Assembly (NCBI GenBank): GCA_021498095.1
Contig: JAIZWK010000001.1
Span: 2,700,001-2,732,000 of the forward strand
DNA from: Candidatus Harpocratesius repetitus
GTDB taxonomy: Archaea > Asgardarchaeota > Lokiarchaeia > Sigyniarchaeales > Promethearchaeaceae
Length of the DNA stretch: 32,000 nt
Direction of reading: 5' to 3'
A program made the translations under genes and the position numbers. Under the pieces are notes generated by a model. That model saw nothing but the letters and a program-made list of their open reading frames with translations, did not search any database and was not told the origin of the DNA. Positions 2,497-31,251 of this stretch are shown here, one piece after another. Position 1 is the stretch's first letter. Each line of letters begins with the position of its first letter.

Positions 2497-4153
2497 TGTC
2501 ACAATTTGTCATCATATTCACATCATATAAATATAAAAAAAAGGATTCTTATTCTTTAATCCTAAGTCGAATTATACAGGAAGTTTCATAAGCAACTTGT
2601 TTTGGTGATAAATATAAAGTTCCTGTCCATCAGCAGATTCTCTGACTAGGATCTGCTGTCCTTTCATCTTGTACGAGATATAATAATATTTTCCTTTATA
2701 TCCAAATGATCCGTTATAAGAAATCTTTCTCGTTTGAGTTTTATTTCGTGAACTACTTGAAGGACTTTTAGAATGAGAGATAATACACTGTTGGCCACGA
2801 AAGATATCGATTTTTGATGGTGATATCCATATTTCTACTTCTAAACCTGCATATCCAGGCGGAATAGCAAATTGTTGTCCATGATAACTTATTAAATTTG
2901 ATTTCGTTACTTTTCGTGTTTCTCTTTCAACAATCCATCTATCCCAATTAAGTTGTACCTCTAATGGGCGATCAATTCGATTTTGTTTCCCAAAATAGAC
3001 TTTACTTGGTGAACTACGATTTGGTAAACCTCGATGTCGATGTTTTGTATTGTAAAATTCTATCCATTTTTGAAGCATTTGATTGAACTCTGTCAGAGTA
3101 ATGGTTGGATCTTGCTTAATTTGATATCGAACTTCAGATAGAAACATAGTTTTAACCGTTCCAAAGAAACGTTCGAGCTTACCTTTGGTTTGTGGATGTC
3201 GGGCACGCGCAAACACAGGTCGAATATCCAATAGTTTAAGAATCCGTTCATATTTTGATCCTAAATTTCCAAGAATATTTTTGAACTGAGTGCCATTATC
3301 CGCCAAGATCTCTAATGGACGACCGTACTTAGAGATTGCTTGCCGCAATAACTCAATAACATGTCCTGATTTTTGATCAGTTGTGTAAAAAGCGGCAACA
3401 ACAAATCGAGAACAGTCATCAAGCAAGGTGAAAAGAAAGAGGGACCCTAAATGACCAATTGTCTGAGCACCAGCAATGTCAATTTGCCATAATTCATTAG
3501 GACTCTCTCGTTCAAATGCATTATAACCCCTGCGGTATTCCGTCGAAATTCTTCCTAGTCCTTTCTTCAATAAATGTCTTCGAATTGAAGTTAACGAGGG
3601 AATTTTCGAAAATCCTTCTTTGATAAGCAAATCAGAAATGATTTGTGCAGTTCTCTTGCTATTTTCTTGTTTTAAATCAACAATCCGATTCCATACTTCA
3701 TTAGGAAATATAGAACGCTTTTGACATAGATTTGGTTTTTGAGAACGACGGGAAATATTCCCACTTTTTGCGATTTTGAGCCATCTGTACACCGTTCGAA
3801 TAGAACAGTGTTCCATGTCAGCAATTTCTTGAATAGATTTTTTTTGATGATAATATTGATGCAAAATCCGTTCAATAAGGTTGGTTTTTCCTTGATCCTT
3901 TGATTTTATCATAGAAAAATCCCCTTATCACAAAATATGTGAATAATTAACAGTTAACGCCTAATAAATAATAGATCATGTGAAAAGTGCAGAAGATTGG
4001 GATCATTTTCGTGTTTAAATTTGCATTTTCTTCGATTATGAGATGTCAATTTAATGGTTGTTGTTACAGCAACCGTCAAAAAAAATAAAGAAAAAAACCA
4101 AATTTGTGCCAGTTTTTTGTCAGTCACTAGGTGGTCAACGACAATTGTGGACA
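2497..4153 (-). mobile_element. IS481-like insertion sequence (ends approximate)
   Basis: Single DDE transposase gene. Candidate TGT-initial imperfect inverted ends are TGTCACAATTTGTCAT (2497) and the reverse complement TGTCCACAATTGTCGT (4153). No clean target duplication was found. The CDS looks more GC-rich than its flanks. Confidence 0.6.
2572..3912 (-). CDS. IS481-family/rve DDE transposase with N-terminal HTH and duplicated C-terminal Mu-transposase-like beta-barrel
   Basis: HTH: SIQEIADMEHCSIRTVYRWLK. Catalytic motifs: ELWQIDIAG (D1), ILADNGTQF (D2), HPQTKGKLERFF (E). Also YNTKHRHRGL and two TRK(V/I)..SY.G repeats at the C-terminus. Confidence 0.9.
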   Translation of the reverse strand: MIKSKDQGKTNLIERILHQYYHQKKSIQEIADMEHCSIRTVYRWLKIAKSGNISRRSQKPNLCQKRSIFPNEVWNRIVDLKQENSKRTAQIISDLLIKEGFSKIPSLTSIRRHLLKKGLGRISTEYRRGYNAFERESPNELWQIDIAGAQTIGHLGSLFLFTLLDDCSRFVVAAFYTTDQKSGHVIELLRQAISKYGRPLEILADNGTQFKNILGNLGSKYERILKLLDIRPVFARARHPQTKGKLERFFGTVKTMFLSEVRYQIKQDPTITLTEFNQMLQKWIEFYNTKHRHRGLPNRSSPSKVYFGKQNRIDRPLEVQLNWDRWIVERETRKVTKSNLISYHGQQFAIPPGYAGLEVEIWISPSKIDIFRGQQCIISHSKSPSSSSRNKTQTRKISYNGSFGYKGKYYYISYKMKGQQILVRESADGQELYIYHQNKLLMKLPV

Positions 4154-21917: not shown

Positions 21918-24215
21918 CTAACGTTTTACACATTTCCCCTTAACTATATAAAAAGATTTGCAATTACTACAAAATCCTTCACCAGTTTGATTATTCAAGC
22001 CATGAGTCCAACAAAGAGGACAGATATAATAATAAAAACGATGACCATTTTTTGAAGTGCTAATTTTTACGATGTTAAAAGAGCATATAGAACAAGTTGC
22101 TTTTAGTAAATGTGGAGTTCCTTTTTTTGGCAAACTTAAATATGTTTGGCATTTGGGATCTTCGCATACTAAGAACTTCTTCTTTTTTTGAGGACTTATT
22201 ACTAATTTCATATGATGAGTTTTACATTTTGGGCAAAATGAAGTTGATAAAGCAGGTGTCGAACCTTTTTTTTGAGATGAAATTATATTTGTATTTGTAT
22301 TTGTATTTAAGTTTGCATTTGTTGATGAACTACTTTTTTGTTTAGAAGAAGTGATTATCTTATTATTTCTACCTCTAATTATATTGCCTGTGCTTTGAAT
22401 CGGCTGAATCTTCGAAACAATTTGTGATTTTTGAGCTCGAAATAAATCGAATAACTTTAAAAATTCTAATTTAATGGAATCTACTACATCATTATATTTT
22501 ATTTGCTGATTCTTTACTTCTTCTAATAATTTTTCCACTTTAGCGGTAAAAGATGGTTCTAAAAATGGTTTCCAAATGTTTTTAAGCGCATCAATTAATA
22601 AAAATCCAAAATCCATTAAATATATAGATCTTCCTTTGCGTTGTATATAGCTTCGATCAATTAAAATTTGTATAATCGCAGGTCGGGTAGATTTGGTTCC
22701 AAGATTTTTTTGCTCCATTAATTGTAGTAAACTTGTATCAGTATAACGAGGTGGTGGCTGAGTTTCTTTCTCTTCAAAATTAATCTTATTAATAGGAAAT
22801 TTAGGTTTTTTCAAGTTTGGATCAATATATTGAGTTATCATTGGCATTGGAGCTGAATATTTTGGGGAAAGAAATGGTGCAATAATGTAAAATCCTTGTT
22901 TTAATAAAGTTTTGAATTGTCCAAGAAATTTCTCTCCCTTAATATCGAATAATACCCGTGTTTCAGATTCTTCAGCTTTTTCACCAAACAATGCTAAATA
23001 ATGTCGAGTAATAAGATTATACACTTGTTCTTGCAGTTTATTTTCAAAAACATTAGCTGATGGTTCAAGTGATTTTAGGGGACTTATTGGAGAATGATCT
23101 CCTGCATTTTTGCGTCCTTGTCGAGGGTTTATCCGGTTATTTTTGAATAAATCTCTAGTATAACCTCCGTAAAGCGAATGTGTTAAGAATTTTTGAAGTA
23201 CGCTTTTATGATCATAATTTGGAGAATAAACATCGGAATCTGTTCGAGGATATGTGATTAATTTGTTTAAATATAAATCTTCCAAGGTTTTTAGAGCTTG
23301 TTTGGCGGTGATTTTAAGATTTTTTGTAATTAATTGGAGTGCTCGGGAAGTATTCAAAGGTGTGGGCGGTAATATTTTCTTAGTTTTCATTGAAATTTGC
23401 TCTAATTGTGCAAATTTTTCATTAGATATTGTGTTATATATTCTTTCTGCAATTTTTTTATCAATAAAATTATTATTTTGATGATTTACACGTAAATTTC
23501 TATTTCCAATCTTAAGATCTGCAGAAATACTCCAAAATGGAGTAGGTTTAAAGTTTCTTATTATATCCTCCCGTAAATAAATAAGGTATAGTAGAGAGGT
23601 TTGGACACGCCCAATAGATGCAAATTTAATGTTAAGGGAATTTAGTATGTTTTTCAAAGTCAAAGAAACTTCTCTTGTGGCCGAAAAACCAATAATTGCA
23701 TCAATTTGAGCCCTTGCTTCACCAGAAAATGCCCATGACCATTTTGGAGGAATCAATTGGTTGAAAGCTTGTTGAATTGTCTTTTTTTGAAGATCATTTA
23801 GCCATAATTGTGCCAGTTTTATCTGCGGATTAGCTTGCTTAACAAAAGGAATAGCATCCATTAATCCAATATTACAACCTTCAACATCGGCATCTGTTCC
23901 AATAATACACGTATCACATTTTTTTCCATATTGTTTCAGAGCTGAAATATAAGCACCTGCATAAGTAGTGGGAATTTTTGCAATTGCATGGGGATCGGTT
24001 ATAATATCTCGAGGATCTTTGGCGGTCCATTTTTTATATGGAGCAGTATTTTCATATTGTTGAATATGTCCCCGTAAAGGTAAAACATATATATTTCTTG
24101 AAGGAATTTGATAAACAGATACTAATTTATTCACTTGCACTTTTTTTGTTTGTCCCAATGCTTCAGCAATTGCTTGTGCTGCTTTATTTTTCTCAGAAAT
24201 GATTAAAGTGCTCAT
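21918..24215 (-). CDS. topA: Type IA DNA topoisomerase (topoisomerase III-like) with C-terminal Zn ribbons
   Basis: TOPRIM: LIISEKNKAAQAIA and IGTDADVEG. Also SIGRVQTSLL, active site LITYPRTDS, DHSPISP, MEQKNLGTKSTR, and C-terminal CPKC..CEDPKC..CSIC..CPLC..CSNC. Confidence 0.95.
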   Translation of the reverse strand: MSTLIISEKNKAAQAIAEALGQTKKVQVNKLVSVYQIPSRNIYVLPLRGHIQQYENTAPYKKWTAKDPRDIITDPHAIAKIPTTYAGAYISALKQYGKKCDTCIIGTDADVEGCNIGLMDAIPFVKQANPQIKLAQLWLNDLQKKTIQQAFNQLIPPKWSWAFSGEARAQIDAIIGFSATREVSLTLKNILNSLNIKFASIGRVQTSLLYLIYLREDIIRNFKPTPFWSISADLKIGNRNLRVNHQNNNFIDKKIAERIYNTISNEKFAQLEQISMKTKKILPPTPLNTSRALQLITKNLKITAKQALKTLEDLYLNKLITYPRTDSDVYSPNYDHKSVLQKFLTHSLYGGYTRDLFKNNRINPRQGRKNAGDHSPISPLKSLEPSANVFENKLQEQVYNLITRHYLALFGEKAEESETRVLFDIKGEKFLGQFKTLLKQGFYIIAPFLSPKYSAPMPMITQYIDPNLKKPKFPINKINFEEKETQPPPRYTDTSLLQLMEQKNLGTKSTRPAIIQILIDRSYIQRKGRSIYLMDFGFLLIDALKNIWKPFLEPSFTAKVEKLLEEVKNQQIKYNDVVDSIKLEFLKLFDLFRAQKSQIVSKIQPIQSTGNIIRGRNNKIITSSKQKSSSSTNANLNTNTNTNIISSQKKGSTPALSTSFCPKCKTHHMKLVISPQKKKKFLVCEDPKCQTYLSLPKKGTPHLLKATCSICSFNIVKISTSKNGHRFYYYICPLCWTHGLNNQTGEGFCSNCKSFYIVKGKCVKR
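22286..22308. repeat. (TATTTG)x3.8 in-frame microsatellite encoding NTNTNTN in the topoisomerase linker
   Basis: Read directly. It matches SSSSTNANLNTNTNTNIISS in the protein. Confidence 0.8.
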
Positions 24216-24239
24216 TAATTTATAAACTCCAAGATCCTT

Positions 24240-24329
24240 TTTTTTAATCTAATTTTTTAATCTAATTTTTTAATCTAATTTTTTAATCTAATTTTTTAAT
24301 CTAATTTTTTAATCTAATTTTTTATCTAA
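24240..24329. repeat. 13-bp tandem repeat TTTTTTAATCTAA x6 plus one 12-bp variant that contains the helicase stop codon
   Basis: Perfect copies start at 24240, 24253, 24266, 24279, 24292 and 24305. The variant TTTTTTATCTAA is at 24318-24329 and includes CTA (24326-24328), the TAG stop on the minus strand. Confidence 0.92.
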
Positions 24330-27300
24330 TTTTTGATTTCTAAATCAAATGGAGAAAGTTTCCAGTATCCGTTTGAATTTTTAATATGTAAAAGAAGCTG
24401 GTTATGAATTGATTTAATCTTTTTTGTTTGTGGGGAATTATTTGTTGATTTAGAACATAATGTGGCTGAATCTCCAATAAAAATAATCTTAGTTCGAGCA
24501 CGACTGATTGCAACATTTAACCTACGAAAATCTGAGTTCAAGGAGCTTAATTCATGATCTGGTCTTGAATCCACAAAACTATAGATTATCACTTCTCTTT
24601 CATTTCCTTGAAATCTATCAACAGTATCCACTGTAATATCACTAAAAGATATATTTTTATTACTCATTTGAATTTCTTTAATTTGTTTATTTCTTAGATT
24701 TTTTTGAATAGTATTTACAAATTCAGATATTTTTGCATTATGCGCTCGAAATGCAGAAATTATTCCTATATTTTCTAAAATTTCATTAATTGCAATTAGC
24801 TTAATATTTGAACCATGAAGTGCAGTTAATAATTCTTTGATAATAACTTTGATTGTAGTTATTTCAGTTGTATTGTATTTTGATTCATTTCCAGCACCTA
24901 AATGATTATAGGATGAATCATATCCTTTCAATTGCTTTGTATCTAAGAAAATCATACTGTTAGATGAATTCCAAACAAATTTCCCAAGATTGGAAAGTGT
25001 AAGGAAAATATTTTGGATTTGAGTAGACTTTGGAATAAATTGAGAAAGAAAATCAAACCATGTAAAATCTCCGATATTCTTGCTGTTAATTGTACCAGGA
25101 ATTAATTTATCTTCATAAAATGTGTGTGAAATAAACTGTGAAATCGTTTTATGCATTCTATATTGTGATTGTAGTAATGTAAAATTCGAAGTATTTTGAA
25201 ATCGAGGTAGAAGTCGCTCAAAAAGTGTTTTATTTAATCCAGACTGATAATCAAAATTCAATTTTGCAAATAGTGGATTATTAACTAAATTCTCTAAATT
25301 TTTATCATCATTAATAACTTCATATTGAGTTATTGGTGGTAATTGTTGATGATCTCCTACTAATACTCCTTTTTCTCCTTTTAACAAAGGAATTATTGCT
25401 CCAGGTTCCAAAATCTGCCCGGCTTCATCTAAAATCACCATAGCAAAGAAGTATGGTTCAAGTAATAATGATCCAACCATAGTTGTGGTTGTTGCAACTA
25501 CATCTACATTTTCTAGCAACAAACGCGCTTTTAATGGATCAACAGCTAAAATTTCGTTTTGATCATATAATTTTTTCTTATATGTACATAAAATTTCTAA
25601 ATTATGACTTTTAACAATTTTAGAATTAGAACTATGAACATTGCCGATGCGGATGCATTTGATTTTTGGATAGCGCTGAATCAATTTCTCTACTAAAAGA
25701 TCAACAGCTTTATTTGTAAAAGCACAAATTAACACAGGAATTTTTGGAGGGATATAGCGTTTTCGAGTTTTAAAAAAACGATCCAATGCATTTACTCGAT
25801 TTTTAGGTGGATTTTTGTTTTGTAGGTGATTATTTTGGTACATTTTAAGAAAATAGTGGATGATTTCAGTGATTACTGTTGTTTTTCCAGTTCCTGGAGG
25901 CCCTTGAATTAGTGCTAGTCGTTGAGCTTGTAGTGCACTATTAATAGCTTGTATTTGACTTTGATTTAAGTTATTTTTAGTCTCATTTTTATCTTCTTTT
26001 TCTTTTTCAAACTCAGAAATTGATGGAATTTTTTTAATTAATTTAGGATACTCTTTAAAAAGGAGTAAATCTTTGAGAAGTTGCTCATGACTTTGTTCTG
26101 GATTAAATGATGCTCTGATAAATACATCTAATGCTTGTTTATACTGCCAAATATGATAATTTGAGAAGGAAAAATCAATTCGATATTTTTGTTTTGCAAA
26201 ATCTTTTCCAAATTTTTCTAATGTCTGTGAAGTTTGAACGATAATGATTTCTGAATTGATTTCAGTTATTATTCCACTTATACTACCTACCTTGTACTTA
26301 TTTAATGTCTGTGGGGTGATTAATATATAATCACCTGAGCGAAATCGAGTTTTTTGATTTGAATTGGCAGCTGGTTTAGAAAATTGATATTGGAATGATT
26401 GATTTATCAAATTTTTTGACCTAGATTGTGAACAATCATCAATAATTAAGGTTAATCCCCCAATTGCTACACCTTTCTCTTCTTGAATCTGGATTTCGTT
26501 AAAACTCTTTAGCATATCGCGTTTAACAGCCAAAAATTCGTGATCAATTAAAAATTGAAACCAATCAGCATAAAATCGGATAAGTTTTAGATCTTTTTTA
26601 AATGTAGACTCAGAGATGGAACTTGTTTGAAAAATTATATCATTAATAGTTTGTTCGTTAGTTGATGCGCCAGATTTTAAATTTAATTGATAAAATTTAT
26701 CTTTATATAGATTTAAGTAAATTTTACATATTTTTTTTGCACTGCATTGAGCACAAGGTGTATCTGGTTTCTTTAAAGGAGTAAGTCCGACTAAAAAACT
26801 CCATAATTTATTTCTAATTTTCAATATTCGTAAAAAATCGGGAGATTGCAGCGCTATGGCTTTATTGGATGCGATTTCTTTGTTTTTGTTCGGTGGATTT
26901 AATGAATAATGTGAAAAACGCTCATTTGGGGGATGTCGCGGATATTCAATAAGAATCTCTTCGATATTCCATTGATATAAATCTTGCAAAATTGCCCCAT
27001 AAGTTAAACCTTGATAATATGCAATCATTTGAGATGCTCTTTTACTTCTTCCCGTTTTTGTTTCTATAATAGTACATCGTTCTTGTTTTAAATCTAAAAT
27101 AAATCTATCAATCCTTCCTTGTAATCCAATCACAGGTGATTGAACAAATTTTTCACAGAATATGTCAAAACGTGAAAATTTTTTTTGATAATCTTGCAAA
27201 TGAGTTCTTATAAATTCCAATTCATTTTCTAAAAAGTTTTCATAAAATTCATTAATAATATTCTTTTCTAATTTTCCTAAAATCACAAAATACTGCCAAT

Positions 27301-27895
27301 TTTGCGAGACTGCAATTTGAAAAGCACTTAATATATCTTGTTTAGTGGGAACCCGAAAACCATTTGAAGATTTCAGCTTGGGAAAGAGAATAGCAAGATA
27401 ATCATGAATTAAATTTCCCCACATCATGTATTCATTTGCTTCACTTGCTACATTAAAATAAAGATCAAGAAAGGATTGAATTTCGCAGTATTCATAACCT
27501 CCAATCCAACTAGAATTGATATATGTAAAGTTATCTAAAATGGCATGATAAATTTCCAAATAGCGCTGTCTTGATGGAAGAATCTTAAATATTCCTTTAA
27601 TAATAACCACAGTTATCGGAAAAAACGATTTTGGCAGTTCAGCTAATATATTAGCAATATCTTTATAGACAAACGCAAAAATTTCCTTTCCATTTGCATC
27701 TACTAAAAGAACAGTGGTAAATCCTTTTTCTTTATTTATTTGCAGAATTTTCGATATAGAGCAAAAAAGAGGTTTTTCATAAGTGATTTGTATGTCTCCT
27801 TTTTTATTTACCTCTTTGTTTTCATCTTTATCTTTATATTCATTAAATGTAACAGAAATTGGTTTATATTCTTGAATAAAATGTAAATCATTCAT
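24326..27895 (-). CDS. dna2: Dna2-like nuclease-helicase (putative OB fold, Fe-S PD-(D/E)xK nuclease, SF1B helicase)
   Basis: Nuclease: YEYCEI (Cys1), WGNLIHD, GLQGRIDRF...IIETKTG, YYQGLTYG, CAQCSAKKIC (Cys2-4). Helicase: IQGPPGTGKTT, CAFTNKAVD, ILDEAGQ, VGDHQQLPP, QYRMH, TVDRFQGNERE, RRLNVAISRAR. Confidence 0.88.
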   Translation of the reverse strand: MNDLHFIQEYKPISVTFNEYKDKDENKEVNKKGDIQITYEKPLFCSISKILQINKEKGFTTVLLVDANGKEIFAFVYKDIANILAELPKSFFPITVVIIKGIFKILPSRQRYLEIYHAILDNFTYINSSWIGGYEYCEIQSFLDLYFNVASEANEYMMWGNLIHDYLAILFPKLKSSNGFRVPTKQDILSAFQIAVSQNWQYFVILGKLEKNIINEFYENFLENELEFIRTHLQDYQKKFSRFDIFCEKFVQSPVIGLQGRIDRFILDLKQERCTIIETKTGRSKRASQMIAYYQGLTYGAILQDLYQWNIEEILIEYPRHPPNERFSHYSLNPPNKNKEIASNKAIALQSPDFLRILKIRNKLWSFLVGLTPLKKPDTPCAQCSAKKICKIYLNLYKDKFYQLNLKSGASTNEQTINDIIFQTSSISESTFKKDLKLIRFYADWFQFLIDHEFLAVKRDMLKSFNEIQIQEEKGVAIGGLTLIIDDCSQSRSKNLINQSFQYQFSKPAANSNQKTRFRSGDYILITPQTLNKYKVGSISGIITEINSEIIIVQTSQTLEKFGKDFAKQKYRIDFSFSNYHIWQYKQALDVFIRASFNPEQSHEQLLKDLLLFKEYPKLIKKIPSISEFEKEKEDKNETKNNLNQSQIQAINSALQAQRLALIQGPPGTGKTTVITEIIHYFLKMYQNNHLQNKNPPKNRVNALDRFFKTRKRYIPPKIPVLICAFTNKAVDLLVEKLIQRYPKIKCIRIGNVHSSNSKIVKSHNLEILCTYKKKLYDQNEILAVDPLKARLLLENVDVVATTTTMVGSLLLEPYFFAMVILDEAGQILEPGAIIPLLKGEKGVLVGDHQQLPPITQYEVINDDKNLENLVNNPLFAKLNFDYQSGLNKTLFERLLPRFQNTSNFTLLQSQYRMHKTISQFISHTFYEDKLIPGTINSKNIGDFTWFDFLSQFIPKSTQIQNIFLTLSNLGKFVWNSSNSMIFLDTKQLKGYDSSYNHLGAGNESKYNTTEITTIKVIIKELLTALHGSNIKLIAINEILENIGIISAFRAHNAKISEFVNTIQKNLRNKQIKEIQMSNKNISFSDITVDTVDRFQGNEREVIIYSFVDSRPDHELSSLNSDFRRLNVAISRARTKIIFIGDSATLCSKSTNNSPQTKKIKSIHNQLLLHIKNSNGYWKLSPFDLEIKN

Positions 27896-27928
27896 ATTAC
27901 TTTCGTTCCTTTTGAAAATAATTTTGGA

Positions 27929-27936
27929 TATATAAA
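27929..27936 (-). promoter_or_regulatory. Archaeal TATA box for the dna2-like gene
   Basis: TTTATATA on the minus strand, 34 nt upstream of the ATG at 27895. Confidence 0.5.
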
Positions 27937-27989
27937 TAATATTTGGCTCTGTAATTATTTTTTAAATTGATAAAAGAAGAATTTTCGAT

Positions 27990-28037
27990 TTTTTGCATTT
28001 TTGCATTTTTGCATTTTTGCATTTTTGCATTTTTGCA
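27990..28037. repeat. 8-bp tandem repeat TTTTTGCA x6 in the divergent promoter region
   Basis: Perfect copies start at 27990, 27998, 28006, 28014, 28022 and 28030. Confidence 0.92.
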
Positions 28038-28137
28038 TTTTTTGTTAATTCCAAAATTCAAAATTTTCAAACTATATATTTTTATACTTATCAGTTAAAG
28101 TAATTACCAAACAAGTTAAATATATGAGAGTGATTTA

Positions 28138-29328
28138 ATGAAAAACATCTTTACAAAGGCAGAGAAATTTACTGAACCACAAAAATTCAAAAAACTTGGA
28201 TTATACCCGTATTTTGTTCAATTTAGCGCAACTATTGGGTCACGTACATCTATTCAAGGAAAAGAAACAATAATGCTGGGAAGTAACAATTATATGGGTT
28301 TGACTTCTCATCCAGAAATGCTTAAAGCTGCGAAAAATGCTATTGACCAATTTGGAACTGGATGCACCGGTTCTCGATTACTAAATGGAACACTTGATTT
28401 ACATAATGAAATGGAAGAAAAACTTTCAAAATTTTTAGAATACGATGATACTATCGCATTTTCAACAGGATTTCAAGTGAATATCGGAATTATAGGCGCA
28501 TTGACTACAAAAAAGGATTATGTTATTTCTGATGAAAAGAATCATGCTTCAATTATTGATGGATGTCGCTTATCGAAAGCAAAAACAATTGTTTATAAGC
28601 ATAATGATCCTCAAGATCTTGAAAAGAAACTTCGAGAGCTCCCGAAAGAAGCGGGAAAATTGTTAATTACAGAAGGTGTTTTTAGCATTGAGGGTGATCT
28701 AGCACCTTTAAAAGAAATAACCGAAATTGCTCATCAATATAATGCAAAAGTCATGATTGATGATGCTCATGCAACAGGTGTTCTTGGAGAACATGGAGAA
28801 GGAACACCAAATCACTTGGGTTTGAAGAAGGATGACGTAGACATTCTATCTGGTACTTTTTCTAAATCTTTTGCGTCAATAGGTGGATTTGCATCTGCCT
28901 CTGAAGAAGTAATAAACTATCTGAAACACACTGCAAGAAGTTTTCTCTTCAGTGCATCTATGCCTCCTGCATCTTGTGCCAGCGTGATAAAAGCAACAGA
29001 ATTAATTAAAAACGGCGATGATATGAGGGAAAACTTGAGAAATCTACTTAAACGTTATCGTAAAGGATTAGTTGATGCTGGATTTAACACTGTTTACAGC
29101 GAATCTGCTATTGTACCAATCATTGTAGGAGAACAAGTAAAGAATTTTCAATTATGGCGCGGGCTACTGGATAATGGGGTGTATACTAATCCTTATATGA
29201 TTCCAGCCGTGCCAATTGGTCATGAATTATTACGAAGTAGTATTATTGCTACCCATTCAAAGCGAGATATTGATGAAGCTTTAGAAATCATAGAAAATGT
29301 AGGTCGTTCATTAAAAATTATATCATAA
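28138..29328 (+). CDS. Alpha-oxoamine synthase (PLP class II aminotransferase), serine palmitoyltransferase-like
   Basis: GLYPYF, MLGSNNYMGL, GTGCTGSRLLNGT, FSTGFQVN, NHASIIDG, DDAHATG, GTFSKSFASIGG (PLP Lys) and ARSFLFSAS. Confidence 0.85.
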   Translation: MKNIFTKAEKFTEPQKFKKLGLYPYFVQFSATIGSRTSIQGKETIMLGSNNYMGLTSHPEMLKAAKNAIDQFGTGCTGSRLLNGTLDLHNEMEEKLSKFLEYDDTIAFSTGFQVNIGIIGALTTKKDYVISDEKNHASIIDGCRLSKAKTIVYKHNDPQDLEKKLRELPKEAGKLLITEGVFSIEGDLAPLKEITEIAHQYNAKVMIDDAHATGVLGEHGEGTPNHLGLKKDDVDILSGTFSKSFASIGGFASASEEVINYLKHTARSFLFSASMPPASCASVIKATELIKNGDDMRENLRNLLKRYRKGLVDAGFNTVYSESAIVPIIVGEQVKNFQLWRGLLDNGVYTNPYMIPAVPIGHELLRSSIIATHSKRDIDEALEIIENVGRSLKIIS

Positions 29329-30509: not shown

Positions 30510-31013
30510 TTACATTTGATTCTTTAAATTATTTGAAAATGGATTGTGAACAATTATATTTTCTATGAAATAAAATGCTTTATCATTTGTAATAATATTA
30601 TTAATATTATGAAGATTCATTGAATGTAAAATCGTTGAATCGCGCCCACCTATGCTTGTTTTTAAGCCATATTTATATAGAAAATTAAGCGTATTTTCTA
30701 GATCTCCCTGATTAATTATGTCAAAAGAAATTTTAAAGAAAGGAAATTTCGATTTAAGTAAATTTTTTGCAATATTGAAGCCCTTTTCTCCCACTTTTTT
30801 TATTAACAAATGAGATAATTCGATTATGATAAATTCATTAATAAAAAATTCATTATCTGGAATTTTAATCAATTTATCGAAATATATTTTAGTAATTTTA
30901 TGATTCTTGGAATTAGCAACTAAATACCACCAAAGAATATTTGTATCAACGAAATAATCTGTAATATCAATCCAACTCCTTAGAATTCCAAATTTCCTTA
31001 GGATTAATTTCAT
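30510..31013 (-). CDS. vapC: PIN-domain (VapC-like) toxin
   Basis: YFVDTNIL, INEFIIIEL, GGRDSTI and IITNDKAF carry the acidic PIN residues. It overlaps the upstream small ORF. The start is uncertain. Confidence 0.88.
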   Translation of the reverse strand: MKLILRKFGILRSWIDITDYFVDTNILWWYLVANSKNHKITKIYFDKLIKIPDNEFFINEFIIIELSHLLIKKVGEKGFNIAKNLLKSKFPFFKISFDIINQGDLENTLNFLYKYGLKTSIGGRDSTILHSMNLHNINNIITNDKAFYFIENIIVHNPFSNNLKNQM

Positions 31014-31251
31014 CAGGATCTTTTACAGTCAAAATTCCTGAAAAGGAATTAATAAACTCATCTCGAATATTAGAGTTACTGGCTTTTTCTCGATTTTTAA
31101 GAGCATCTAATATAGTTTGATAATTTTCTTTACCAATTTTAAAAATTAATGATAATAATTCTTTTTTTGTTAATTTAATCTTAGTATCGAGATAAATTCG
31201 TGCAATTAATTCATCTAGTTCATTTTGATGATCAAATTTTATTGTTGACAT
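30967..31251 (-). CDS. Putative cognate antitoxin
   Basis: 94 aa, directly upstream of and overlapping the PIN gene, with an acidic C-terminus (FSGIL...DPDEINPKEIW). Confidence 0.7.
   Translation of the reverse strand: MSTIKFDHQNELDELIARIYLDTKIKLTKKELLSLIFKIGKENYQTILDALKNREKASNSNIRDEFINSFSGILTVKDPDEINPKEIWNSKELD

Follow-up and report, generated by a model that had tools for sequence, protein, structure and literature searches.

The P0001 gene, its active site and its family

The stretch of DNA analysed in this study, referred to as the window, comprises 32,000 nucleotides of the genome of Candidatus Harpocratesius repetitus (C1:2700001-2732000), which is closed as one contig of 4.36 Mb; the window has a G+C content of ~30%. 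The gene of interest, P0001, lies on the forward strand at 28138..29328 and is a complete alpha-oxoamine synthase (AOS) gene of the serine palmitoyltransferase (SPT)-like subfamily, as evidenced through its open reading frame (ORF), Pfam and NCBIfam profiles, structures in the Protein Data Bank (PDB) and an AlphaFold model. P0001 is an archaeal member of an already known kind of enzyme, and what is new here is the exclusion of the KBL and BioF roles, the finding of a bacterial outgroup linked to the bacterial ceramide synthase (bCerS), the distribution across Asgard genomes, and the co-occurrence with a megasynthase.

P0001 is a single ATG-started ORF encoding 396 amino acids with no internal stops, and a check of the opposite strand found no open frame there. 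The ORF and the five motifs quoted in a first-pass annotation, which was made by reading the sequence alone, were all recovered by ORF listing and translation: GLYPYF (residues 21-26), GSRLLNGT (78-85), STGFQVN (109-115), GTFSKSFASIGG (239-250, holding the pyridoxal phosphate (PLP) lysine K243) and ARSFLFSAS (266-274). The Pfam family Aminotran_1_2 (PF00155) matches residues 44-385 over profile positions 3-361 of 361 (E = 9.5e-64), a full-length class I/II aminotransferase match that places P0001 in the AOS group of PLP fold type I. With this E value, and with 8,000 database proteins scoring E <= 1e-30 against P0001, the family match is not due to chance. The nearest named relative is a Candidatus Harpocratesius protein with 98% identity, and further named relatives come from Promethearchaeia, Kariarchaeum and Lokiarchaeum ossiferum, which agrees with the Asgard source that had been proposed from the sequence and marks the host as a Lokiarchaeial archaeon.

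The residues of the active site were compared with those of S. multivorum SPT, for which structural roles have been described (PMC10196870). By alignment, P0001 holds the whole AOS catalytic set, each member of which is invariant across 92 sequences and is encoded on the forward strand. His136 (28543..28545), the equivalent of S. multivorum His138, is predicted to stack on PLP and to anchor the substrate carboxylate. In the segment Asp208-Asp209-Ala210-His211 (28759..28770), Asp208 and His211, corresponding to S. multivorum Asp210 and His213, would contact PLP N1 and O3', respectively. Lys243 (28864..28866), in GTFSKS, aligns with S. multivorum Lys244 and is the putative Schiff-base lysine, and Arg366 (29233..29235) is the conserved AOS arginine; its counterparts, Arg366 of ThAOS and Arg390 of S. 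paucimobilis SPT, bind the amino-acid carboxylate (PMC11906848). P0001 also retains Asn50, Tyr52, Gly78, Ser183, Thr240 and Ser242 when set against the S. multivorum structure.

The residues that separate the AOS subfamilies were read from a column alignment with three Bacteroidales SPTs, a Sphingomonas SPT, two genes from Spt-bCerS-CerR clusters, three KBLs and two BioFs. The YPYF motif (Y23-P24-Y25-F26; 28204..28215) is present in Bacteroidales SPT and in bCerS-linked Spt-like proteins, and not in KBL or BioF; the same is true of the GSRxLNGT, GTFSKSxASxGG and ARSxxFSAS motifs. Within G78-S79-R80 (28369..28377), Ser79, the equivalent of S. multivorum Ser81, stands where KBLs have Val (ThAOS Val79). 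Val at this position limits the amino-acid substrate of KBL, with Ser being found in SPT and AONS (PMC11906848), and it occurs in all of the KBL references used here as well as in one of the two other AOS proteins of the host genome (paralogue 3). Judged from these columns, P0001 carries the SPT-type signature of YPYF, GSRxLNGT with Ser rather than Val, GTFSKS, and FSAS. The motifs had been described as SPT-type and unlike those of KBL (GTLGKA) or BioF on first reading, and the alignment is in agreement.

Some residues around the substrate and acyl site do differ from S. multivorum SPT, with Ala79 replaced by Thr77, Phe83 by Leu81 and Met271 by Leu270. Phe83 is part of the acyl-site wall in S. 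multivorum SPT, and its equivalent Leu81 (28378..28380) is specific to the P0001 lineage, being shared with its 98% and 80% identical relatives. This position is Tyr in the second SPT-like protein of the host (paralogue 2) and in L. ossiferum, and Phe in Kariarchaeum, bacterial Spt-like proteins and Bacteroidales SPTs, the exceptions being Aureispira (Tyr) and the Sphingomonas SPT (Met).

Profile and structure comparisons all placed SPT first, as the initial assignment to an SPT-like AOS had suggested. The best NCBIfam model is SerpalmtaseCFB, the Bacteroidota-type SPT (482.5 bits), followed by the beta-proteobacterial SPT (409 bits), TIGR01825 (BioF/Kbl-related, 407 bits), KBL (398 bits) and BioF (384 bits). 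The best solved structure is S. multivorum SPT (384 bits), with lower scores for Sphingomonas SPT (311 and 287 bits), ThAOS (291 bits), KBL (283 bits) and BioF (229 bits). Structures of cysteate fatty acyltransferase (sulfonolipid CFAT/SulA) score only 233 (28EH) and 218 bits (7U7H), and by closest structure P0001 is not a member of this group. The AlphaFold model, built from the 92-sequence alignment, has a pLDDT of 97 and superposes on S. multivorum SPT (8GUH) with a TM score of 0.96, a root mean square deviation of 1.1 Å and 46% identity, compared with deviations of 2-4 Å for KBL, BioF and ALAS and TM scores of 0.93-0.95 for ThAOS and KBL.

P0001 resembles S. multivorum SPT (PDB 3A2B, 8GUH) in build: the 46% identity runs from end to end of the protein without interruption by long insertions, the His, Asp, His, Lys and Arg of the catalytic set are the same, and, as in the Bacteroidales enzymes (NF047600), the architecture is a soluble single domain of ~395 residues. 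Unlike Bacteroidales spt, P0001 has no adjacent gene of the DAG-kinase family, its host is an archaeon, and in the trees it belongs to a distinct clade made up mostly of Asgard sequences. KBL (E. coli Kbl, PDB 1FC4) has the same fold and catalytic residues at 34-38% identity, but its lysine motif is GTL(G/S)KA where P0001 has GTFSKS. BioF also has this fold, and Ser at the ThAOS-79 position as well, but falls in a different clade.

Eukaryotic SPT, a heterodimer of SPTLC1/SPTLC2 or LCB1/LCB2 (PDB 7K0I, 6M4N), belongs to the same reaction family and is far more distant than bacterial SPT, with human SPTLC2 scoring 186 bits against P0001; P0001 is no closer to it than KBL is, and lacks its N-terminal membrane anchor. 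As in the case of the two eukaryotic subunits, the host genome has two paralogous subunit-like genes; both of these keep the catalytic lysine. The two SPT-like paralogues might, by analogy with LCB1/LCB2, work as a heterodimer.

Phylogeny, paralogues and bacterial relatives

Trees were constructed using FastTree (277 rows) and IQ-TREE (LG+C20 PMSF, quick search, 112 rows), the sampling being biased toward P0001 relatives and eukaryotic LCB1/LCB2 SPT being left out. The SPT references were orthologues from Bacteroides, Parabacteroides and Prevotella and the Sphingomonas SPT of a CerR-ACP-SPT cluster; the Spt-bCerS-CerR references were Rubrobacter and Aureispira genes in AOS-GNAT-SDR clusters; and KBL and BioF were represented by E. 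coli BioF and Kbl, Bacillus and Ralstonia Kbl (tdh adjacent) and Alicyclobacillus BioF (bio operon). In both trees P0001 and its 61-98% identical relatives form a subclade, the sister of which holds paralogue 2 and L. ossiferum. Together with Kariarchaeum and a basal bacterial sequence, P0040, these make up a clade of 38 rows (SH-aLRT 95) in which every named member comes from an Asgard archaeon, and this lies within a superclade of 85 rows (SH-aLRT 91) that contains every SPT reference and the Rubrobacter and Aureispira cluster genes. KBL and BioF form a separate clade (SH-aLRT 96). Many fused AOS enzymes, and AOS enzymes linked to polyketide synthases (PKS), are also found in the SPT-like superclade. 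So too is a further Spt-like AOS, encoded on a Priestia megaterium plasmid (L018:4998-6212), which has the YPYF motif, is 44% identical to P0001 and is adjoined by methyltransferase and membrane acyltransferase genes.

The host genome encodes three AOS genes. Paralogue 2 (C1:1423026-1424159) is SPT-like (470 bits) and 53% identical to P0001. Paralogue 3 (C1:2355040-2356125), with 41% identity to P0001, scores 492 bits on TIGR01825 and 447 bits on KBL, and lies inside the KBL clade (SH-aLRT 97). It is divergently paired with a gene of the short-chain dehydrogenase/reductase (SDR)/epimerase family (pair G000:C1:2353634-2356125, L008:8608-11129), which shares 47.8% identity (E = 1e-99) with the epimerase-family gene located after kbl in Ralstonia, an arrangement that, from the sequence similarity, is that of kbl with an SDR-type threonine dehydrogenase (TDH). 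Paralogue 3 and its neighbour thus look like a pair for the catabolism of threonine to glycine in this Asgard archaeon, and because of this pairing paralogue 3 is taken to be the KBL of the genome. The only strong TDH-like gene is this one, ~373 kb away from P0001. With tblastn queries from E. coli and Alicyclobacillus, BioB, BioD and BioW had no match in the closed genome at E <= 1e-3, and BioA queries matched only generic aminotransferases (25-28% identity). Another gene therefore fills the KBL role, and the genome offers no biotin pathway in which a BioF could act.

These results bear on whether P0001 could be a redundant short-chain enzyme, that is, a second KBL, a BioF-type enzyme, or a promiscuous KBL/BioF such as ThAOS of Thermus. 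Most of its relatives do carry the database name '8-amino-7-oxononanoate synthase', the KBL, TIGR01825 and BioF models still reach 384-407 bits, and the ThAOS and KBL structures fit the model closely. Forcing the Asgard clade to group with KBL and BioF costs 49.6 log-likelihood units, and the approximately unbiased (AU) test of this grouping gave p = 0.0515, which falls short of rejecting it. The phylogeny places P0001 in the SPT-like superclade and apart from KBL and BioF in both trees, as was predicted, with the AU test of the alternative being borderline. None of the cut-offs of the short-chain families is reached, however, TIGR01825 among them; the scores are 398 against 460 bits (NF005394) and 337 against 493 bits (TIGR01822) for KBL, and 384.5 against 426 bits (TIGR00858) for BioF. 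The Val that defines KBL is Ser in P0001, the sole TDH-like gene is partnered with paralogue 3 and not with P0001, and the biotin genes are missing. In line with the first reading, P0001 is unlikely to be the KBL or a BioF of this genome, and a short-chain role of any kind is improbable.

The closest bacterial relatives of the Asgard clade connect it to bacterial ceramide synthesis. The Rubrobacter and Aureispira clusters, which encode GNAT proteins of ~380 aa, served as anchors for the bCerS family, together with the Sphingomonas and Latescibacteria loci. In Sphingomonas a bCerS homologue lies just beyond lptF-lptG, ~6 kb from spt (spt...lptF-lptG-cerS), mirroring the layout of the spt region of Caulobacter (PMC11324152). 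A Latescibacteria relative with 50% identity to P0001 has a bCerS homologue ~6 kb away on the same contig, and on the contig of P0040, which carries a bacterial-type flagellin gene, a bCerS homologue (405 bits) is found two genes from the AOS. As both relatives lie near bCerS, the Asgard clade is taken to descend from the Spt of ceramide-type bacterial neighbourhoods. Ding et al. 2024 (ISME J; PMC11334938) described an 'Spt-like' clade B of bacterial Spt homologues with bCerS and CerR nearby, and found no archaeal metagenome-assembled genome with Spt-like proteins in their metagenomic survey. The nearest bacterial relatives of P0001 share the nearby bCerS of clade B, and the Rubrobacter and Aureispira Spt-bCerS-CerR genes share a superclade with P0001; unlike clade B, the genome that encodes P0001 has no bCerS.

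A radical-SAM gene directly adjoins these bacterial Spt-like genes (L011:8534-9982, L046:8302-9918). It is of the SPASM type and directly upstream of the Spt-like gene in Latescibacteria, and of the B12-binding type, between Spt and bCerS, on the P0040 contig, and may encode an undescribed accessory step of bacterial sphingolipid synthesis.

With 384 bits to bacterial and 186 bits to eukaryotic SPT, P0001 appears, as far as sequence similarity can indicate, to have been acquired from bacteria and not to be a hallmark of the eukaryotic kind. The simplest history would be the transfer of a bacterial Spt into Asgard archaea, followed by its duplication within Lokiarchaeia, after which the Harpocratesius lineage would have kept the two copies by vertical inheritance. 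The P0001-type copy is confined to this lineage: among 151 sampled Asgard genomes an orthologue was found only in G089, of the same genus.

This restriction of the second copy, along with the lack of operon partners, could point to a decaying or functionless duplicate of paralogue 2. Against this, the frame is intact, all of the catalytic residues are retained and the structure model is of high confidence. Relatives with 61-98% identity recur in independent metagenomes, and the 80% identical orthologue P0004 is in the same gene order (TrkA-like, topoisomerase, Dna2-like, AOS, TrmO, radical SAM). Comparison of P0001 with P0004 gave a dN of 0.17 with dS saturated, for which reason no dN/dS ratio is given; together with the conserved synteny, this indicates that P0001 is under purifying selection. 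Decay is therefore highly unlikely.

Surroundings of P0001 in the window

P0001 is alone on its strand, with a Dna2-like nuclease-helicase gene upstream in divergent orientation and TrmO downstream in convergent orientation, so the flanks hold no bio, tdh or ceramide-pathway genes, as was noted before. The intergenic region shared with the Dna2-like gene (27896..28137) contains an A/T-rich, TATA-like stretch at about 28072-28088, a putative promoter, and a Shine-Dalgarno-like GAGAGTGA at 28126-28133, 4 nt 5' of the ATG, which is a putative ribosome binding site. A perfect tandem repeat of TTTTTGCA (6.6 copies; 27990-28042) also lies between the two genes and might be a regulatory or slippage-prone element.

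The Dna2-like protein (21918-27895, minus strand) comprises 1,189 aa with a PD-(D/E)XK nuclease and an SF1 helicase, and its gene is directly upstream of a type IA topoisomerase gene, an order kept in the 80% orthologous locus (L013). Other genes in the window encode ribosomal protein L10e and an aldehyde:ferredoxin oxidoreductase. At 30510-31251, on the minus strand, a gene for a PIN-domain protein (167 aa) and an overlapping upstream ORF of 94 aa have a layout that resembles a VapBC-type toxin-antitoxin pair. A 446-aa ORF at 2572-3912, with intergenic gaps on both sides, contains helix-turn-helix, rve integrase-core and Mu-transposase C-terminal domains and is probably a transposase of the insertion sequence type.

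Predicted reaction, missing partners and meaning for Asgard lipids

The enzyme encoded by P0001 is predicted to be a soluble, homodimer-type, PLP-dependent AOS of the bacterial Spt-like lineage, whose ancestor would have been a bacterial Spt that worked with a bacterial ceramide synthase. An amino acid, most likely L-serine, would form an external aldimine with the PLP held by Lys243, His136, Asp208 and His211; this would be deprotonated and would then condense, in a decarboxylative reaction of the Claisen type, with an acyl thioester of medium or long chain length, yielding a long-chain base with a 3-keto group as in 3-ketosphinganine. Acyl-CoA synthetase-like enzymes or a giant ketosynthase/acyl carrier protein (ACP) megasynthase could provide the acyl donor. 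The favoured interpretation, with a probability slightly better than even (about 0.55), is that serine and a long-chain acyl thioester are condensed to a 3-keto long-chain base in an SPT-type reaction. The choice of serine, the length of the acyl chain, the product and its fate are predictions, made for a protein whose family, catalytic residues and clade are as described above.

Candidates for the acyl supply were found in the host genome, which encodes at least 10 AMP-binding (acyl-CoA synthetase-like) proteins and, in a single giant frame (G000:C1:866277-872180), a megasynthase of 3,819 aa with a ketosynthase domain and four ACP domains. The distribution of SPT-like genes was examined in the 151 Asgard genomes, with SPT-like defined as at least 47% identity to P0001, a cut-off set after a gap between 47% and 43% was seen in the hit list. 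SPT-like genes are patchy, occurring in 11 of the 151 genomes, from families f1, f5 and f27, and the sister family f2 of the same order (25 genomes, mostly > 90% complete) has none. The ketosynthase of the host's megasynthase was found in 23 genomes, and the 11 that encode an SPT-like protein are all among these; in the remaining 128, which lack this ketosynthase, no SPT-like gene occurs. At family level, all three SPT families are among the seven ketosynthase families of 27, for which our own arithmetic gives a chance probability of ~0.012, with related families not being independent. The co-occurrence of SPT-like genes and megasynthases is therefore suggestive at the level of families.

Several observations weigh against an SPT-type function. 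P0001 scores below each of the curated SPT cut-offs, with 482.5 against 640 bits for NF047600, 409.4 against 500 bits for NF047599 and 349.6 against 670 bits for NF047603, and the Asgard clade is not nested within any characterised SPT clade, in addition to the borderline AU test. In S. multivorum SPT the serine side chain is contacted by the residue equivalent to Asn50 and by backbone atoms, the hydroxyl being bound via water; these residues occur in KBL too, and because of this the sequence cannot fix the amino-acid substrate. The co-occurrence with megasynthases comes from three archaeal families only, which means few independent events. In the loci of Asgard clade members that were compared, no informative or conserved neighbour was found around the orthologues. 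SPT homologues are also reported to be present in organisms without sphingolipids (PMC8895605).

The pathway partners of SPT, too, were not found in the searches of the closed genome for bCerS, KdsR and CerR-like proteins. A hidden Markov model (HMM) of four bCerS sequences had no match among the six-frame ORFs even at E <= 10. Ceramide synthase of the TLC type (PF03798) is absent from the genome, which holds only a 19-bit fragment with stops. No 3-ketodihydrosphingosine (KDS) reductase reached the cut-off of the Bacteroides model NF049977 (best 154 against 400 bits), and the CerR-like matches are generic extended SDRs, with HpnA and OleD as their best models, located far from both SPT-like genes. 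A search of the genome had been proposed as a check on the first-pass annotation, and it returned candidates for the acyl supply without a clear 3-keto reductase or a bacterial ceramide synthase. The caution that the substrate is unproven was well placed, given the missed SPT cut-off (482 vs 640 bits) and a genome with no ceramide synthase or clear ketoreductase.

Four candidates for these steps were considered and set aside. A PF09924 (LPG_synthase_C) protein encoded close to paralogue 2 (C1:1426895-1427731) was rejected as bCerS, since BLAST showed no similarity between it and the anchored ~380-aa GNAT family. The SDR beside paralogue 2 reaches only 43 bits on a CerR HMM, and in L. ossiferum no SDR gene adjoins the orthologue. 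A 'KDSR-like' SDR (C1:3115463-3116335) is a generic classical SDR, with 82 bits against the 400-bit KdsR cut-off. Lastly, a DAGK_cat lipid kinase is present but is uninformative as a pathway marker, since the family was also found in 13 of 14 control genomes.

Some bCerS homologues are present elsewhere in the Asgard archaea. Among the 151 genomes, an SPT-like gene and a bCerS-like gene occur together only in G123, where the bCerS match is weak (83 bits; G123:C119:7634-8596), and full-length bCerS homologues were found in two genomes that have no SPT-like gene (G112:C28:10104-11207, 282 bits; G010:C29:1572-2663, 161 bits). These homologues could be contamination, the result of gene transfer, or GNAT proteins with another function.

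The missing partners and the missed cut-offs could be expected of an AOS from the Spt-like lineage that has shifted to another substrate pair, in which Gly, Ala, Thr or a different amino acid might be joined to the thioester of a fatty acid or of some other acyl group. Its product would then be a non-sphingoid amino-ketone (a signal or a building block of a secondary metabolite) or a 1-deoxy or atypical base, rather than 3-ketosphinganine. The separation of the Asgard clade from characterised SPTs would fit such a shift, as would the changes in the acyl-site wall that are specific to the lineage (Leu81 in place of Phe/Tyr, and Leu270 where S. multivorum has Met271), and the duplication would let one copy diverge in function. 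The fused and PKS-linked AOS enzymes belong to the same superclade, and few mutations are needed to alter the substrate scope of an AOS (PMC11906848). However, the motif set of P0001 is nearly identical to that of bCerS-linked bacterial Spt-like proteins, its closest bacterial relatives are in ceramide-type gene neighbourhoods, and there is no biosynthetic cluster around P0001 or its orthologues. Both the change of substrate pair and a product other than 3-ketosphinganine are thus regarded as serious but clearly less probable, and the condensation of serine with a long acyl chain is preferred.

Eukaryotic membranes contain three main classes of lipids, of which sphingolipids are one, and in bacteria it is SPT that catalyses the first step of sphingolipid synthesis. 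Archaea are not known to contain sphingolipids, and our literature search returned no match joining serine palmitoyltransferase with Asgard, nor DUF2156 with ceramide. From the sequence comparisons made here, some Asgard archaea carry intact, selected Spt-like genes that descend from bacteria with a ceramide pathway. A tentative extension of this is that the Asgards that own a megasynthase (the Harpocratesius family, f5 and f27) make sphingoid long-chain bases from serine and fatty acyl thioesters of their own making. It is possible, though doubtful, that in cells with neither bCerS nor a TLC ceramide synthase such bases would either remain in free form or receive their N-acyl group from an acyltransferase unrelated to these two.

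The patchy distribution, the bacterial-looking origin and the missing rest of the pathway set limits on how far these findings should be read. P0001 resembles bacterial SPT more than the eukaryotic enzyme, and for this reason it does not directly show that eukaryotes owe their sphingolipid synthesis to Asgard archaea. The findings do bear on the 'lipid divide' and on the claimed Asgard affinities of eukaryotic sphingolipid metabolism (PMC12872458). The same clade includes a protein (P0031, 53% identity to P0001) from Lokiarchaeum ossiferum, which is in culture, and the lipid question can therefore be tested now. P0001 itself is a cloneable candidate for lipid chemistry that uses fatty acyl rather than isoprenoid chains in the archaea most closely related to eukaryotes and, if Asgards with a megasynthase do make sphingoid bases, lipid chemistry of the sphingolipid type would be known from Archaea for the first time.

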